From the IMG/VR virus record IMGVR_UViG_2703718778_000012: a stretch of DNA of 25,112 nt; one strand, given 5' to 3'. Positions 2,833 through 21,511 of this stretch are shown one piece after another. A program made the position numbers and the translations under genes. Numbering within the stretch: the first letter of the stretch is position 1; every line of letters begins with the position of its first letter. The stretch is from a virus (Duplodnaviria; Heunggongvirae; Uroviricota; Caudoviricetes). The notes beneath the pieces were generated by a model. That model had not been told where the DNA came from. It made no database searches and saw only the letters and a program-made list of their open reading frames with translations.

Positions 2833-3429
2833 TTAATTCGAGACTATTGTACTTCTTATACAAGCAACCACTTCAATATCAGAAAATGCACATTCAAAGC
2901 TATTCTCTGCTGTTGTAATTTTAATCATTCCTTTAGGAAGCCTTGTGATTTTTCGAATGGAATAGGTTCCGTCGATATTGATTAACCAGTTTCCATCAAG
3001 TACTTCAGAAAATTTTTGATCACAAATGTATGTGACGAGTCCATCCTGAACAACAATTGGTGATGAAAGGTTTGCAGGAAGAAATGATGAATCGAAGACA
3101 TATGAACCGTCTTCAATCATTTTGCCTGCGGCAAGGCGAAACTTAACAAGCTCTTCTGTAGCTGCTGTCAGCGAGCTTTGCTTAAGGCCTTGTCCGGTAG
3201 TTAACCATTTGAGGGAGGTTCCTGTTTCAAGAGCACATTGGATTATCCAGTCAGCAGGAAATGTATCCCGCAAATACCTGTTCGCTAGTGTGCTTTTTGA
3301 TACTTCCAAGTGATCAGCTAAAGCCTGTCGTGTCGTAAAGCCATAGGCTTCGACTAATCGCTCAATCGCAGCCTTACCACCTTTATTGGGATTTATTTTG
3401 ATCTCACTTGGGTACTTTGATGTTGACAT
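2833..3429 (-). CDS. cI: CI-type immunity repressor (phage 186 CI-like)
   Basis: 198 aa (186 CI is about 192 aa). N-terminal segment AYGF..RQALADHLEVSKSTLANRYLR......CALETGTSLKWLTTGQG resembles a 186 CI-type DNA-binding domain. Position between int and a divergent apl/cII operon matches P2/186 synteny. Confidence 0.75.
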   Translation of the reverse strand: MSTSKYPSEIKINPNKGGKAAIERLVEAYGFTTRQALADHLEVSKSTLANRYLRDTFPADWIIQCALETGTSLKWLTTGQGLKQSSLTAATEELVKFRLAAGKMIEDGSYVFDSSFLPANLSSPIVVQDGLVTYICDQKFSEVLDGNWLINIDGTYSIRKITRLPKGMIKITTAENSFECAFSDIEVVACIRSTIVSN

Positions 3430-9558: not shown

Positions 9559-10299
9559 TCAGTTTTCTTTGAATTTTTCACTTAATCGTTTCGTCAATAC
9601 TTCGACAGATTCTTTGCGACCGGAGAACAAGTCATTGACGACGTACTCCATAATCTCAAAAGCATCCTCAATGTCTTTGACTTTTACTTCATCGTAGGTA
9701 TGGCTTCCGGCATTTCCTAAAAATTTAATTGCCATAAGAGGTCTTGAAAACGATCCGTATAATTCAGGTAGCATCCCTAAACGGTGGTGTAGAGTTATGC
9801 GTTTGCCATTATCATTACGTTCAGCTACATCCATAGCGGTTAGCATTCTTTCAACTGAAATTCGAATTAGGTTTGCTGCTGCGCCAGGCTGTATTAGGAA
9901 AATGGAAAATGAGGCTTCAAGCGGTTCGGTAATTTCTTCTGGGCATTTTTCAGGTATTTCGAAAGGATGCAGTGATGGGTAAAAGGTGAAAGGTCTGTGC
10001 CATTGATAGTACTCAATATCATTTCTTTCTTCATCCCAACCTTGTTCCCATCCACTCTTACCAGTACAGGCCACAACTTCACCACATTGCATTCTTGAAC
10101 AGCGGGCCATGCAACTGAAAATAGATGAATCCATTTCTGGTTCAAACCAATCTTCACTGCGGAATTTTCGGGTATCATGTGTGTCATACGAGACGAAACT
10201 TTCTTTAATGATCTGTAGGGTTTTCTGATTGCAGTTAGGGCAGGGCCACTCAACCTGCATATCGTGGAAAAACGCACCAGAGAGCTTGTGCACAGTCAT
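9559..10299 (-). CDS. Hypothetical protein with N-terminal Cys-rich (zinc-ribbon-like) region and C-terminal alpha-helical domain (possibly DUF4145-like)
   Basis: 246-aa ORF, AT-rich relative to backbone. CPNCNQ ... CMARCSRMQCGEVVAC suggests a metal-binding module. The C-terminal half (AAANLIRISVERML...FLGNAGSH) is helical; the DUF4145 assignment is from memory only. Transcribed divergently from the HNH operon. Confidence 0.65.
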   Translation of the reverse strand: MTVHKLSGAFFHDMQVEWPCPNCNQKTLQIIKESFVSYDTHDTRKFRSEDWFEPEMDSSIFSCMARCSRMQCGEVVACTGKSGWEQGWDEERNDIEYYQWHRPFTFYPSLHPFEIPEKCPEEITEPLEASFSIFLIQPGAAANLIRISVERMLTAMDVAERNDNGKRITLHHRLGMLPELYGSFSRPLMAIKFLGNAGSHTYDEVKVKDIEDAFEIMEYVVNDLFSGRKESVEVLTKRLSEKFKEN

Positions 10300-10445
10300 T
10301 CTTTGTGTTCCTCATTTTTATGATTGGTAGGGATTGTATCTTCATACACGATTACAGTTGCATTAAAGATAAGCCATAGCAAGCTACTGGAAAAGAGACG
10401 AAACAGTTGGGCATATCAGATGTTTTTTCTTAAGGTAAGTTGTTG

Positions 10446-10546
10446 TGCATGCCTATACTGCATGAGATTGCATGATCGTTTGAGGATCGTTATTGCTAAG
10501 GCCCACCAGAACTGGCGGGCTTTTGCGTAGAGCATGCAGGTGCATG
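10446..10546. repeat. Cluster of five GCATG motifs, including the direct repeat TGCATGA-N3-TGCATGA
   Basis: TGCATG at 10446, 10459 and 10469; GCATGC at 10532; TGCATG at 10541. Lies between the 246-aa gene start and the cos-like sequence. Confidence 0.35.
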
Positions 10547-10569
10547 AAAACCACTACATAAAGCGGGCA

Positions 10570-10600
10570 GGCGTGGCGGGGATACGAGCGCGCGCTCACC
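10570..10600. other. cos: Candidate cos site (cohesive-end region)
   Basis: GGCGTGGCGGGGATACGAGCGCGCGCTCACC closely resembles the P2/186 cohesive-end region as I remember it (P2 GGCGAGGCGGGGAAAGCAC followed by TGCGCGCTGAC). Includes a perfect palindrome GAGCGCGCGCTC. This is a GC-rich island within AT-rich flanks. Confidence 0.5.
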
Positions 10601-10676
10601 ACAATTAGCAAGCTTGCTTATAGGGTTGTTCAGTAATAAATTAACATCCTAATTTCTATACTTTTAAGGTTAGTTC

Positions 10677-11372
10677 ATGGCTTGCAGTAGGGGAAAAGCT
10701 TCTCCAAACGCTAATACAGTTAGACGGCTTTTTGCCAGCTCAGGTGGCTTTTGCCAAAATCCACAATGCTTGCAACCTTTGTTTGTTGATGCTGGCGACA
10801 AAAATATAACAATTGGAGAACTTGCTCACATTTTTAGTGCCATTGATAATGGACCTAGAACCAATGCTGATCTAACTGATGAGCAGAGAGGTCATTTTGA
10901 CAACATTATTCTTCTATGTGCTAATTGCCATACGACAATTGATAAGGCAGAGGAACATTTTACTGATGAAATTATCCGTTCTTGGAAAAACGGCCATATT
11001 GATAAAATAAATGCAACCTTTGGTGTTAAAACATATGACAATCGAGAATCTGTTAGACAGGAGTTAGAAAAATACTTCAGAGAAAACAATACCATTTTTG
11101 TAACATATGGACCAACCCAAGAGAACAGCGTTGACCCTGAAAATCCAAATGCAGAAGTATGGTTAAGAAAAGTACAATCTCATATCTTACCCAACAATAG
11201 AAAAGTACAGCGACTGGTTGAACAAAACTATCACCTCATGAGTGAAGATGAGAAGAATGTTTTTTCAAAGCTTTGTGTTCATATAGATGACTTTGAATCA
11301 AAACATTTGGGCTTAACCGATGCTAATGGTAGTAGGTTTCCAGAAGCTGCATCTGAACTATTTATAGGATGA
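10677..11372 (+). CDS. HNH-family endonuclease
   Basis: 231 aa. GGFCQNPQC ... ELAHIFSAIDNGP ... DNIILLCANCHTTIDK contains the His / Asn / Cys-x2-Cys-His elements of an HNH beta-beta-alpha-metal fold. AT-rich. First gene of a three-gene operon with overlapping stop/start codons. Confidence 0.75.
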   Translation: MACSRGKASPNANTVRRLFASSGGFCQNPQCLQPLFVDAGDKNITIGELAHIFSAIDNGPRTNADLTDEQRGHFDNIILLCANCHTTIDKAEEHFTDEIIRSWKNGHIDKINATFGVKTYDNRESVRQELEKYFRENNTIFVTYGPTQENSVDPENPNAEVWLRKVQSHILPNNRKVQRLVEQNYHLMSEDEKNVFSKLCVHIDDFESKHLGLTDANGSRFPEAASELFIG

Positions 11373-12028
11373 ATCCAATGAGCATAAATGCGAGTGAAGG
11401 CTATATTTCATGGATGGCAGGAAAATTGCAAGAAAATAAATGTGTCGAAAATATAGAGGTGATAGGTGATGGTACTTTAGTGATTAATACTACACAGGGT
11501 GACACCTATTTGATCGGGGCAATCAATACTGGCCGGATAACATGTCCTGAGATAAATGAATACCTAGACAATAAAAAAATTGATTTTCTATCAGTCAAGG
11601 GAGGTGTTGAATTTATCTCTGGTGATGCAATGAGATTACTAGAACAAAAGAAAATAGGAGTGGGTTCATTTGGGCATATTGCATCTTCTTTAAGAGCTAA
11701 TAATCCGCTTGAGCATCTTGATAAAGAGCATTTGTTTATAAATAGAGTGTTCAATCAACATTCACATGTAAGCTCTGTAGAGCGAGAAACCAACAAAAAA
11801 TATAGACTTAAAAGACGTGGCTTGGCGGACTTAGTTATTATCGCTGCGAATGATTATGATATGACAGCGGGTTCTGTAAGAGATGCGATAGGGTTGCATG
11901 GCAATTGTGATGTTGTTTTTTCCTCCAATCCTAATGGACGATTGACGACTCAGGCAAAAGAGGCTGCTCAAAGTATCGGGGTGGAGCTTTACAAGTTGGG
12001 TGATTTATTACGAAGAATTTCACGGTAG
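11369..12028 (+). CDS. Hypothetical protein (middle gene of HNH/NTase operon)
   Basis: 219-aa ORF whose start overlaps the HNH stop (ATGA). No motif I can assign with confidence; contains RVFNQH (R-x4-H), which is weakly reminiscent of a HEPN motif. Confidence 0.65.
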   Translation: MNPMSINASEGYISWMAGKLQENKCVENIEVIGDGTLVINTTQGDTYLIGAINTGRITCPEINEYLDNKKIDFLSVKGGVEFISGDAMRLLEQKKIGVGSFGHIASSLRANNPLEHLDKEHLFINRVFNQHSHVSSVERETNKKYRLKRRGLADLVIIAANDYDMTAGSVRDAIGLHGNCDVVFSSNPNGRLTTQAKEAAQSIGVELYKLGDLLRRISR

Positions 12029-12345
12029 TGAATTTTAAACATACGATTGAATCGATCTGTGATGTTATTATCCATCATAGTTTATATATGGTGGATGTAT
12101 ATGTATTTGGGTCAGCATTAAAGAGTTTTTGCGATGCAAATGATATTGATATGCTTGTGATAGGTGATTGTGTCGATGGTTTATTATTGAAGCGAAAGCT
12201 GCGGGAGCTTGATTTATTTGTTCCTGTTCATATTATTACAATGACGCATTCAGAAGAGTATGAACTGGGATTTATTAAGTCAGTTGGCACTTCTCTGCTT
12301 GTTGTTGATAAAAGCGTTAAGATCAATTTTGTATGTGGTATATAA
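12028..12345 (+). CDS. Minimal nucleotidyltransferase (Pol-beta superfamily, MNT-like)
   Basis: 105 aa. VYVFGSALKSFCDANDIDMLVIGD fits the GS-x(9-13)-DxD signature of minimal nucleotidyltransferases. Probable GTG start overlapping the upstream stop (TAGTG); an internal ATG is an alternative start. Confidence 0.6.
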   Translation: MNFKHTIESICDVIIHHSLYMVDVYVFGSALKSFCDANDIDMLVIGDCVDGLLLKRKLRELDLFVPVHIITMTHSEEYELGFIKSVGTSLLVVDKSVKINFVCGI

Positions 12346-12356
12346 CGGGTGGCAAT

Positions 12357-12394
12357 AAGCCTCTTCTTTGGATGGGTTTCTAAAGAAGAGGCTT
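12357..12394. terminator. Strong hairpin between convergent operons (candidate bidirectional terminator)
   Basis: Perfect 13-bp inverted repeat AAGCCTCTTCTTT (12357-12369) / AAAGAAGAGGCTT (12382-12394) with a 12-nt loop, placed between the end of the NTase gene and the stop of Q. Confidence 0.5.
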
Positions 12395-12397
12395 TAA

Positions 12398-13426
12398 TTA
12401 CAAGGAGTAATCTTGGAATTTTATTACGTCATCATGTAGCCAATTGTTCACCTCTCTAATTCGTTGTTGAAGAGGCTTTAATTCATTACGTACAAAAACC
12501 GTGGATGCCTTCTCCACATCCCCAAACCCGCCAACATTATTCGGCATGATACCCATCATTTGCGGAGGCACGCGGTGTGCCGCCATCATGTCATCCCGGC
12601 TCACGTTCTTGATGTTCAGAAATTCATCCTTTGCCGCGACTTCTGACAACGGGATAATCTGAAGACCATCCTTTTTGCCGTTAGGTGAGTACATAAACAG
12701 GTTGCGGAAGTTGCCTGGACCTTTGGCGCTTTTCATTGCGTTGCGGAGGTTGTTCACATCCTCCTGGTTCTGCGCAGCATCGGTCATGTACATGATGAAG
12801 CCAGCATGACTGCCGTTAATGTAATACTTTCGGCGGAACAGCGTGGCGGACTCGTTGAGCAGGGCTGACGGAATGGCAGAAAGATAACCGGGCAGGCCGT
12901 AGATCTCCTGGTTGATGTCCGGTTCCATCAGATGAAAGATGCTGCCTTTCGTGAACTGATATGGCTGCGTGGTCATACCGTATTGCACAAACCAGTAGGT
13001 ATCCAGGTCTAACCCGCGTCGGGTGTATTTTGCCAGGGCAGGTTCAAGGGCGATAACTTCACCGAAGCGGTTCGTGCGTTTCTCCAGGTAGGCGTTACCA
13101 AATACCAGATAGTCCTGCACAAAACGCGAAAAAGCCTGCTGGCTGAGCAGCGGGTGAGGGATGTAGGTGCTGGTCAGAATGTTGCACTTTACTGCAATCG
13201 GGGAACTATGATGCACGGCAGCGCGGAAGGTGCGCGCCAGTCCGTCAAAGCTGACGGGCGGCTCATACCAGCGGTCCATCTGTACGCATTCCACATAATC
13301 CAGCAGTTCTCGGCGGTCCAGAACAGGAACGGGATCGCCGAAGCTGAATGCTTCGGCTGTAGTTTGACTTTTAAGCTGGATCTGTTTCGTCGCCGCAGTG
13401 CGGTTCTTCTTACTCTTTCCCATCAA
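12398..13426 (-). CDS. Q: Portal protein (P2 gpQ family)
   Basis: 342 aa. Extended similarity to my recollection of P2 gpQ (GDPVPVLDRREL..., YLVFGNAYLE..., LNESATLFRRKYY.NG.HAG.IMY.TDA, IPLSEVAAKD.F.NIK, FVRNEL.PLQ.RIRE.N.WL). Start overlaps the P stop. Confidence 0.9.
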   Translation of the reverse strand: MMGKSKKNRTAATKQIQLKSQTTAEAFSFGDPVPVLDRRELLDYVECVQMDRWYEPPVSFDGLARTFRAAVHHSSPIAVKCNILTSTYIPHPLLSQQAFSRFVQDYLVFGNAYLEKRTNRFGEVIALEPALAKYTRRGLDLDTYWFVQYGMTTQPYQFTKGSIFHLMEPDINQEIYGLPGYLSAIPSALLNESATLFRRKYYINGSHAGFIMYMTDAAQNQEDVNNLRNAMKSAKGPGNFRNLFMYSPNGKKDGLQIIPLSEVAAKDEFLNIKNVSRDDMMAAHRVPPQMMGIMPNNVGGFGDVEKASTVFVRNELKPLQQRIREVNNWLHDDVIKFQDYSL

Positions 13427-20324: not shown

Positions 20325-20763
20325 ACTGCAGAAGGTGGACGACTGGCTGAGTGCCTTGCTGGCGAATCTGGAACCAGCCACGAGAAGCCGCATGATGCGC
20401 CAGCTGGCGCAGGAACTGCGCCGGACACAGCAGCAGAATATCAGGATGCAGCGCAATCCAGATGGCAGCAGTTATGAACCGCGCAGGGTAACAGCACGTA
20501 GCAAGAAGGGGCGCATCAAACGTCAGATGTTTGCAAAGCTGCGCACCACCAAATACCTGAAAACCGCCGCCAGCGCCGACTCTGCCTGCGTACAGTTTGA
20601 AAGTAAGGTGCAGCGCATTGCCCGCGTTCACCATTATGGCCTGCGCGATCGCGTCAGCCGCAAAGGACCGGAAGTGCGTTACGCAGAGCGTCGTTTGTTG
20701 GGTCTTAATGGTGAGTCTTACGTTCTAACTCTTGATATATTGAATAGATTCCTTCTGTCTTGA
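20317..20763 (+). CDS. S: Tail completion protein S (P2 gpS family)
   Basis: 148 aa. ...LAQELRRTQQQNIRMQRNPDGSSYEPRRVTARSKKGRIKRQMF...VQRIARVHHYGLRD.VSR.GPEVRY parallels P2 gpS. GTG start overlaps the R stop. The last roughly 18 codons are AT-rich and overlap the convergent cargo gene. Confidence 0.85.
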   Translation: MAELQKVDDWLSALLANLEPATRSRMMRQLAQELRRTQQQNIRMQRNPDGSSYEPRRVTARSKKGRIKRQMFAKLRTTKYLKTAASADSACVQFESKVQRIARVHHYGLRDRVSRKGPEVRYAERRLLGLNGESYVLTLDILNRFLLS

Positions 20764-21511
20764 ATTCACCATATGCCCAATGAATTGCATTTTTTTGTTC
20801 AGTCAGAATATATTTCCTAACTTTTTTAGAATAGTGAATGGTCAGTATAAAACCCAAAGAAATCCATAATAGAATAAATATGGTTGTTGGGGCAAAGGAA
20901 TAGATAAAGAATTTGTCTTTAACGAAATTCTTGACTTCTTCATCAATGTAAGCATTCCCTTCATCAGTGGTTAGTAGTTTACAAAGAATTTCTTTATGTT
21001 CGATAGTTAATGATTTGTACTTCTCTGTACTGGCAGAGGATGACTCTTCGCAATCATCCTTTGATATTTCCCAATCAGGAGTGGTTAATATTGTAGCTGC
21101 AGTCGCCAGTTTTTTTGACATATAAAATGATTCACCGGACTTTATCCAATAAAGCAATGTGCTATTTGGTGGGGTTCTAATGGCTTGGATGAAAACTGGA
21201 CCAAAAATATAAATTGCATACAAAAAAAGAAGTGAAAAGAGAACCGTGATTGATTTTTCAGCCCATGTGATAGTAGGCAGCCTTTTTAATGATATTCGTA
21301 TAAGAAAAAAATTTAATATAAACGCAGGTATTCCTGATTTTTTCAAAATTACATCATGAGATTTTCTATATTTGAATAGTGCTCTTATAACTATCGTCAC
21401 CAAAGTTATAACAGCTCCAATAATGGAAATCCATGCGGCAAGTGCCGCTGCCGGGGTGTTTAAAAATTCAGCATTAAATATATTAGAACTTATTGGATTC
21501 ATAACACTCAT
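20705..21511 (-). CDS. Multi-pass membrane protein (cargo gene, unknown function)
   Basis: 268-aa ORF, strongly AT-rich. At least three hydrophobic helices (AALAAWISIIGAVITLVTIVI; SITVLFSLLFLYAIYIFGPVFI; FIYSFAPTTIFILLWISLGFILTI) flank a roughly 80-aa charged soluble segment. GGTGG Shine-Dalgarno 4 nt before the ATG. Inserted between S and V, antisense to the late operon. Confidence 0.7.
   Translation of the reverse strand: MSVMNPISSNIFNAEFLNTPAAALAAWISIIGAVITLVTIVIRALFKYRKSHDVILKKSGIPAFILNFFLIRISLKRLPTITWAEKSITVLFSLLFLYAIYIFGPVFIQAIRTPPNSTLLYWIKSGESFYMSKKLATAATILTTPDWEISKDDCEESSSASTEKYKSLTIEHKEILCKLLTTDEGNAYIDEEVKNFVKDKFFIYSFAPTTIFILLWISLGFILTIHYSKKVRKYILTEQKNAIHWAYGEFKTEGIYSIYQELERKTHH

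Follow-up and report, generated by a model that had tools for sequence, protein, structure and literature searches.

What is a compact, AT-rich set of three genes doing between the cohesive-end site (cos) and the portal gene of a P2-like prophage? This question is raised by the IMG/VR virus record IMGVR_UViG_2703718778_000012, a stretch of 25,112 nucleotides (nt; hereafter, the window), in which positions 10677-12345 are occupied by genes for an HNH nuclease (g1), a protein without any assigned motif (g2), and a minimal nucleotidyltransferase (g3). An earlier note, which was made from the letters of the DNA, had proposed a defence or toxin-antitoxin-like cassette composed of a nuclease effector and a minimal nucleotidyltransferase; computationally, this proposal holds in terms of the hotspot location, the intactness of the trio, and the domain classes, and we further infer that the nucleotidyltransferase regulates the nuclease. 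The trio is best described as an unnamed candidate system for defence or abortive infection, in which an effector and a transferase, each of a known class, appear to be combined with two undescribed domains. More specifically, we regard it as evenly balanced whether the trio would be an autonomous and horizontally mobile conflict module, most likely the abortive-infection, anti-phage cargo of the cos-proximal hotspot in this prophage.

The three open reading frames (ORFs) reported in the earlier note were indeed present on the plus strand: namely, g1 at 10677-11372 (231 amino acids (aa), ATG start), g2 at 11369-12028 (219 aa), and g3 at 12028-12345 (105 aa, GTG start), and the overlaps of the stop and start codons described there were found as ATGA at 11369-11372 and as TAGTG at 12026-12030. 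In RefSeq, the start of g2 is placed at the next ATG (11378; 216 aa), which is preceded by AGGA, so that translation of g2 may in fact not begin at the ATGA overlap; the tight coupling of the genes holds either way. The motifs pointed out in the translations, ELAHI...GP...DNIILLCANCH in g1 and FGS...DIDML in g3, were also confirmed, as was the higher AT content, with the GC content being 0.34-0.39 over the operon (11001-12500) versus 0.52-0.60 in the structural-gene backbone. Because full-length homologues with 20-50% identity are arranged in the same order in many phyla, the three genes are real and not chance ORFs.

When one genome per species (~186,000 species genomes) was scanned, relatives of g1 were found in at least 280 species genomes, and 80 loci were fetched for examination. 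Essentially all of the 80 genome loci with room for the trio showed the order g1-g2-g3 with the genes overlapping or abutting, and the full trio was found in all seven IMG/VR loci. The first profile of g3 was narrow, and where it missed, an ORF of ~96-114 aa with FGS...DxDL was present; the remaining loci without the full trio were accounted for by contig ends, an insertion sequence (locus L050), and degraded copies (L075 and L084). The hosts are distributed over more than 10 phyla, including alpha-, beta-, and gamma-Proteobacteria, Bacteroidota, Acidobacteriota, Gemmatimonadota, Nitrospirota, and Cyanobacteria, and also Chloroflexota, Actinomycetota, Omnitrophota, Planctomycetota, Spirochaetia, and Clostridia. 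Among the three proteins, g1 is the best conserved, with E. coli and Bacteroidota sharing 45-50% identity, followed by g2 (~25-30%) and g3 (~20-30%). The three genes are strictly co-inherited and are probably translationally coupled.

Several loci depart from this arrangement. In a metagenome-assembled genome of Gemmatimonadales (L038, 6707-7646), the C-terminal part of g2 and g3 are in one frame as an ORF of 182 aa with a frameshift earlier in g2, which is either a natural fusion of g2 and g3 or the result of indel errors in a long-read assembly; the natural fusion, if real, would be an argument for a physical interaction. A transposase-like ORF directly follows g2 in place of g3 in L050 (7346-9322), g2 and g3 are both truncated in L075, and a truncated g1 is left without g2 and g3 in L084; whether g1 stays intact once its partners are lost would bear on a toxin-antitoxin logic. 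Also, a divergent trio is found in an IMG/VR contig (L095, 4971-6286), where g1 has ~30% identity and g3 keeps GS...DxD; the g2-like ORF was called there at just 161 aa, and given the overlapping starts of the longest ORFs, this length could be an artefact.

The backbone of the window is a 186/P2-like prophage of E. coli with the genes for integrase, cI repressor, gpA replication endonuclease, DinI, portal, terminase, and capsid, and the window is 100% identical in E. coli STEC17-183 and JNEC-KY179. The core of the P2-type cohesive ends, GGCGTGGCGGGGATACGAG, has its sole exact match within the window at 10570-10588 on the plus strand and is located inside a block (10441-10596) conserved across P2-like phages of Klebsiella, Escherichia, and Salmonella; the same sequence is also printed beside the cloned fragments of P2/P4 hotspots (Rousset 2022, Table S2). 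The trio is on the portal side of cos, and a DUF4145 gene is on the opposite side; furthermore, in four P2-like loci of enterobacteria, nothing separates the trio from cos, and the loci with this junction include those of Enterobacter and Winslowiella as well as a further P2-like contig. Being situated between cos and the portal gene, the trio is therefore in the cos-proximal hotspot of P2, which is known to be rich in defence systems (Rousset 2022).

The cassette was found in only 14 of the 5426 complete genomes of E. coli (including the widely used laboratory strain ATCC 8739), whereas the flanks were matched in 1276, so that the carriers amount to ~1% of the flank-matching genomes and the cassette is regarded as variable cargo. 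These counts also bear on the other possibility raised in the earlier note, that the HNH protein aids terminase at cos as in HK97-like phages. The operon is ~90 bp from the cos core and adjoins the portal and terminase genes, as would be expected for such a helper of packaging; nonetheless, this role is contradicted and hardly tenable in our view, because the cassette is rare among P2-like phages, with P2 itself having none, and occurs outside phages. Indeed, the same trio is present in non-phage chromosomes of many phyla and also by the cI-like repressor of a lambda-like prophage in Pseudomonas atacamensis. Furthermore, the PHROG families matched by g1 are of unknown function with only weak matches to the HNH families, and terminase-associated HNH proteins (HK97 gp74 type) are not known for the constant company of a nucleotidyltransferase and a third protein.

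As judged from its ORF, homologues, and the AlphaFold2 (AF2) model, g1 (10677-11372) is an HNH DNase with a C-terminal four-helix bundle and is the proposed effector of the trio. More than 376 full-length homologues with ~231 aa were found, and the AF2 model has a predicted local distance difference test score (pLDDT) of 83. The N-terminal residues 1-114 (10677-11018) were assigned to a zinc-finger-bearing HNH (His-Me finger) domain of the Cap5/SPARHA class by the matches in PADLOC and among the sequences in PDB. In PADLOC, the best match was PDC-M68A (2e-29), with those to HNH effectors of the cyclic-oligonucleotide-based antiphage signalling system (CBASS; down to 1e-22) and to some SduA models following, and all of these matches were confined to residues 5-125; the matches in PDB were HNH-APAZ of SPARHA (9om4, 1.7e-9) and Cap5 (8fm1, 5e-7). 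In the alignment of 84 sequences, Cys26, Cys31, Cys81, and Cys84, which are the four cysteines of the zinc finger, as well as Glu48, His51, Asn76, His85, Asp89, and Lys90 were conserved at 95% or more, and because the zinc-finger cysteines and the catalytic residues are conserved, the HNH enzyme of g1 looks catalytically active. The HNH clade of Cap5 and SPARHA is silent until tetramers or filaments are assembled and then cuts DNA indiscriminately (PMC12738770); the output of g1 is hence probably an assembly-activated, collateral cleavage of DNA.

The C-terminal half of g1 (residues 123-227; 11043-11357) is less readily classified. The alignment and the AF2 model describe a conserved four-helix bundle with invariant Arg123, Pro146, Glu155, Trp162, Pro172, His202, His210, and Pro222, to which no family was assigned: no Pfam family and no relative among PDB sequences were found, and the fold matched generic helical bundles only. 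We also considered the bundle as a HEPN-like partner of the transferase and found no support for this, with no match to HEPN, DUF86, or NTase_sub_bind in 76 C-terminal domains at E ≤ 10. At the other end of the protein, the N-terminal 11 residues (MACSRGKASPN; 10677-10709) are strongly conserved, with Cys3, Gly6, and Pro10 at 95% or more and Arg5, Ala8, and Ser9 also highly, and are predicted to be disordered (pLDDT 48); this tail might serve in regulation, be a site of modification, or form a part of the dimerisation surface of HNH.

The third protein, g3 (12028-12345), was assigned by Pfam and by the profile search against PDB to the minimal nucleotidyltransferases (MNT class) of the Pol-beta superfamily, in agreement with the earlier note, which had taken it for such an enzyme and not for a CBASS cyclase. 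Among 76 members of the g3 family, 74 matched Polbeta and 70 matched NTP_transf_2 in Pfam. The family profile found minimal nucleotidyltransferases as the nearest structures: AF0614 (1ylq, 4.5e-6), 2rff (1e-4), HI0073 (1no5, 1e-3), and MntA (5yep, 5e-3), with HalB reaching just 0.41. The catalytic Gly28-Ser29 and Asp39-x-Asp41 are encoded at 12109-12114 and 12142-12150, respectively, and Phe27, Gly28, Ser29, Asp39, Asp41, and Glu76 are conserved at 90-95% or more; beyond the catalytic residues, the family is only weakly conserved with a mean column identity of 22%. No PADLOC model, including those for nucleotidyltransferases of the cGAS/DncV type (CD-NTases), matched g3 at E ≤ 1, whereas the CBASS models in the same library did match g1. 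From these features, g3 is apparently an active enzyme that consists of the bare catalytic core of the MNT class. Also, 27 of the 76 homologues matched DUF6932 in Pfam (best E value, 5e-5), an uncharacterised family that may be a related group of minimal nucleotidyltransferases.

For g2 (11369-12028; 219 aa, or 216 aa with the RefSeq start at 11378), the earlier note had found no assignable motif. No match was obtained in Pfam, PADLOC, NCBIfam, or the sequences of PDB; the fold is, however, assignable. The AF2 model (pLDDT 92.5) and hhalign describe g2 as a tandem duplication of a restriction-endonuclease-like domain, with the core fold of PD-(D/E)xK nucleases. Nothing was hit by Foldseek at E ≤ 1e-3, and the weak matches were EndoMS, the N-domain of RPB5, and MspJI. 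The size of this family depends on the search: a word-indexed one gave only 12 close clusters, all in Enterobacterales, and an exhaustive profile search gave 289 clusters at 50% identity, all with ~215 aa.

When the two halves of a 76-sequence alignment of g2 were compared with each other by hhalign, they were found to be homologous (probability 98.2%, E value 4.6e-14), and g2 is therefore considered to be a fused duplication, i.e., a pseudo-dimer. The N-terminal repeat (residues 15-108; 11411-11692) is a diverged copy, and the sole near-invariant residues of the protein are in the C-terminal repeat (residues 112-219; 11702-12025): only Phe123, Gln130, His131, Tyr163, and Arg171 are conserved at 95% or more in 80 sequences, and the C-terminal copy also conserves NPxG at 187-190 and Thr193. 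While its fold would suit an active PD-(D/E)xK nuclease, the family alignment contains no conserved D...(D/E)xK triad, and because of the lack of these acidic and lysine residues, g2 has the nuclease fold and yet is probably not a nuclease. It is more likely that g2 has a binding function, with DNA, a ligand, or a partner as what is bound, or is itself modified, and we propose its role as a sensor, an adaptor, or a target of modification. No recognisable domain for reading DNA modification was found in g2, and no match to HEPN, DUF86, or NTase_sub_bind was found in 76 g2 sequences (E ≤ 10).

How could these three proteins work together? Proteins of the MNT class neutralise HEPN toxins through AMPylation, with MntA reportedly AMPylating HepT, and to our knowledge, AMPylation of a partner toxin is the sole activity established for MNT proteins that stand alone in conflict systems. 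Because of this sole established activity and because the core of ~100 aa needs a partner supplying the acceptor, covalent nucleotidylylation is favoured here. In such a mechanism, the HNH DNase of g1 would be the toxic output, as its effector class suggests by homology, and its activity would be gated by g2 and g3. Namely, g3 would nucleotidylylate g1 or g2 so as to hold the nuclease off, and g2, an inert pseudo-dimer with one conserved pocket (Gln130, His131, Tyr163, Arg171, and NPxG), would serve as the sensor/adaptor or would itself accept the modification, perhaps at Tyr163. Infection would then break the restraint by a phage trigger (protein or DNA), by depletion of nucleotides, or by loss of a labile partner, and the HNH domains thus released would assemble and destroy DNA. 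We hold this version of control, in which the covalent modification of g1 or g2 is the "off" state released on infection, only tentatively, as something short of probable. Similarly tentative is the broader proposal that the trio would represent a new class of module, where an MNT-type nucleotidyltransferase controls a Cap5/SPARHA-type HNH DNase via a duplicated, dead nuclease-fold protein acting either as the target of nucleotidylylation or as the receptor of a product.

In the main rival explanation, g3, perhaps completed by the bundle of g1 or by g2, might make a small nucleotide or a short oligonucleotide that is bound by the pseudo-dimer of g2 or by the bundle of g1; the HNH nuclease would then be switched on by the ligand as in CBASS or held off until a phage factor removes the ligand, as Hailong does with its oligo-dA guard. 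The architecture of g2, in which a duplication is fused and only one polar pocket is conserved, is formally similar to the origin of SAVED from two CARF domains, the Cap5-type HNH is under the control of a ligand in CBASS, and HalB, albeit with its weak match to g3 (E value 0.41), exemplifies that nucleotidyltransferases can make inhibitory oligonucleotides. Proteins of the g3 family (96-115 aa) nonetheless have no helical substrate domain such as CD-NTases and OAS-type enzymes possess, no model of CD-NTase or HalB matches g3, the fold of g2 is that of a nuclease but not of CARF, SAVED, or STING, and the conservation of g3 outside the catalytic residues is very weak, as described above. We regard this ligand model as unlikely, albeit with an appreciable chance of being right.

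The weak resemblance of g2 to EndoMS/NucS and MspJI brings up yet another possibility, a restriction-like defence with no suicide, in which g2 would read a feature of foreign DNA (modification, ends, or structure) and recruit the HNH nuclease as in the type IV enzyme McrA, with the transferase being an accessory. Such a type IV logic needs no cognate methyltransferase. We nonetheless consider it improbable; the nearest relatives of the HNH domain by sequence are the collateral DNases Cap5 and SPARHA instead of McrA, g2 lacks a recognisable reader domain, and no role is left for a transferase that is strictly co-inherited and catalytically intact.

The genomic neighbourhoods of the trio bear on the proposal of an anti-phage module. 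In P2-like prophages, the trio is in the cos hotspot with differing co-cargo, and in the Pseudomonas prophage mentioned above, it is next to the cI-like repressor. In Pantoea, the trio is carried by a P4-like satellite (psu, delta, and integrase) and adjoins a type I restriction-modification system, and in a related contig, it adjoins the genes for an OLD-family ATPase and a UvrD helicase (GajA/GajB-like, i.e., Gabija-like). A census of the neighbours (142 nearest large ORFs from 71 loci) identified no flanking gene conserved across the loci but a mixture of housekeeping genes with AAA_15/AAA_21 ATPases, AbiEii, DNA methylase, ResIII, DUF4276, integrases, and a transposase. Given such varied settings with no conserved neighbour, the trio is considered to be autonomous and mobile. 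In Hymenobacter psychrophilus, furthermore, a gene of the Barstar family (RNase inhibitor) is located directly 3' of a chromosomal trio (L087, 11675-11935).

These settings also bear on whether the trio is a plain addiction (toxin-antitoxin) module that stabilises a mobile element with no anti-phage role. A compact, overlapping operon of a likely toxic nuclease and an MNT-class protein, whose relatives are antitoxins elsewhere, would fit such a module, and the cassette is indeed found on prophages and satellites. Many chromosomal copies, nonetheless, have no genes of mobile elements nearby, and the slots of P2 and P4 are experimentally enriched for defence systems; we thus give a purely addictive role a low probability, while the roles in addiction and against phages are not mutually exclusive.

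Several observations weigh against our interpretation and should be considered together. Viral contigs with the cassette are rare (7 of 2.9 million), and beyond Enterobacterales, the trio is often chromosomal with many of its immediate neighbours being housekeeping genes. Because domains of the defence or mobile-element type were found in only ~7% of the 142 nearest large ORFs, the signal of defence islands outside Enterobacterales is modest. As regards the mechanism, the duplicated, single-pocket architecture of g2 would equally suit a receptor of a ligand, the transferase is encoded last in the trio unlike in the HEPN/MNT pairs, and neither HEPN nor a conserved Rx4-6H signature was found in g1 or g2, so that the partner of g3 is not HEPN. 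Also, the trio is unnamed in PADLOC v2, Pfam, and the literature searched, and a very recent name is conceivable.

As to prior descriptions, the earlier note had not recognised the trio as any named system, and this stands in that neither PADLOC v2 nor Pfam places g2 or g3 in any system; the genes themselves, however, have been listed before. WP_000752436, WP_012304892, and WP_001009569 are among the P2 loci in Table S5 of Rousset 2022 with the label "hypothetical", while the trio is not among the systems cloned in that study. Also, g1 (WP_000752436.1) is a "Predicted novel defense gene" in the supplementary table of DefensePredictor with log-odds of 5.96 (cutoff, 4), and the DefensePredictor tables have no sign of g1 having been cloned; this prediction, like the hotspot context, lends indirect support to a role in defence. 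The accessions of the trio were not found in the main texts of the literature searched, in which we found neither a precedent for the pairing of an HNH toxin with an MNT antitoxin nor a report of the cassette being tested for function. None of the new systems in the 2026 paper on P2/P4 hotspots (Crouga, Bandua, Aernus, Toga, Reve, and Hailong) has this composition, and no operon with a nucleotidyltransferase or Cap5 is described in the domain-centric discovery paper.

The operon is also bordered by possible signals for its transcription. A candidate sigma-70 promoter (TTGCTT-17 nt spacer-TAAATT; 10614-10642, plus strand) precedes g1 as a conserved sequence in the copies of E. coli, Enterobacter, and Winslowiella; it agrees only weakly with the consensus (3/6 and 4/6), too weakly for the threshold that was set in the promoter scan, and we take this element as a candidate for the operon promoter. 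At the other end, a hairpin at 12357-12394 separates g3 from the convergent portal gene and would be a terminator common to both, with an inverted repeat of 16 nt (94% complementarity), a loop of 6 nt, a folding energy of -24.8 kcal/mol (z = -6.0 versus shuffled sequence), and a U-rich tail. No match was found in the Rfam scan of the window and so no non-coding RNA component of the retron or ToxIN type, and the repeat search of the window gave, in addition to this hairpin, only short, low-identity repeats at the level expected by chance.

Elsewhere in the window, further genes were noticed. A protein with 558 aa encoded on the minus strand (1136-2812), in an AT-rich island that is flanked by the integrase (1-1053) and by the cI repressor (2833-3429), matches PD-Lambda-1 of PADLOC (3.6e-120; DUF4041 and T5orf172/MUG113); by this match, the prophage holds a second, known defence gene in another slot, which we count for the context of defence. 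The DUF4145 gene across cos in the same hotspot (9559-10299, minus strand; 246 aa; Pfam, 5e-13; phrog_1305, 8e-50) has a weak match to PD-T7-4 in PADLOC (2e-5), and its place is taken by another gene (WP_000700647) in ATCC 8739; the DUF4145 gene is probably cargo in its own right and may have a role in defence. A third AT-rich island (GC content, 0.35-0.42) interrupts the late-gene region and encodes a DUF6216 protein with 268 aa and no PADLOC match (20705-21511, minus strand), which may mark another cargo slot of P2.

If validated, the trio would be a compact (1.7 kb), widely distributed defence system, in which known parts come together in a new, hitherto undescribed combination, and would offer another way of gating the "megalonuclease" of the Cap5/SPARHA type and a non-HEPN partner for the minimal nucleotidyltransferases, which are abundant and poorly understood. 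A function would also be given to two protein families absent from Pfam, the helical bundle of g1 and the duplicated domain of g2. Should the trio truly be a new class of module, the DNases activated by assembly would come under covalent control in the style of type VII systems or else under a minimal signalling pathway, and two families of protein domains would be newly defined.

Compared with known systems, the trio is none of CBASS, HEPN/MNT, Hailong, Rst_3HP, and PDC-M68, and some of its parts are shared with them while others are its own. Rst_3HP ('hp + hp + hp' in Rousset 2022) is likewise composed of three genes for hypothetical proteins in the same cos-proximal hotspot of P2; the proteins of Rst_3HP from E. 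coli E1114 in Table S2A greatly exceed g1-g3 in length and show no likeness to them by eye, and the peptides of the trio are absent from that supplement. In Hailong, which is also found in P4 hotspots (2026 P2/P4 hotspot paper), a small nucleotidyltransferase (HalB) likewise controls an effector, the channel HalA; no channel or transmembrane effector is present in the trio, and HalB is ~230 aa in size with only the marginal match to g3 mentioned above. PDC-M68, a candidate system in PADLOC, includes PDC-M68A, which is likewise a protein with ~250 aa and an N-terminal HNH domain, but the match is limited to residues 13-113 of g1, and the C-terminal domain of g1, g2, and g3 match no PDC-M68 model.

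The HEPN/MNT systems (HepT/MntA, type VII) are similar to the trio in having a compact, overlapping operon of a transferase and a nuclease, and g3 falls into one class with MntA, HI0073, and AF0614 and has the conserved GS...DxD...E; the trio is distinct, nonetheless, in using an HNH DNase instead of a HEPN RNase and in having three genes instead of two. With CBASS, the trio shares a Cap5-type HNH domain, which is present in g1, whereas the CD-NTase (SMODS) cyclase of ~300-400 aa and the sensor domain (SAVED or STING) have no counterparts, with g3 being only 105 aa and the C-terminus of g1 being the four-helix bundle; the SAVED-HNH models of PADLOC align to residues 5-125 of g1 only. As for the effector, the HNH domain of g1 groups, in sequence as well as in fold, into one clade with those of Cap5 in CBASS (HNH-SAVED) and of SPARHA (HNH-APAZ with a short prokaryotic Argonaute), and it keeps their zinc finger and catalytic His/Asn/His. 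SAVED, APAZ, CD-NTase, and Argonaute are all absent from the trio, where the part for sensing and regulation is replaced by the four-helix bundle, the duplicated nuclease-fold protein, and the nucleotidyltransferase of 105 aa.

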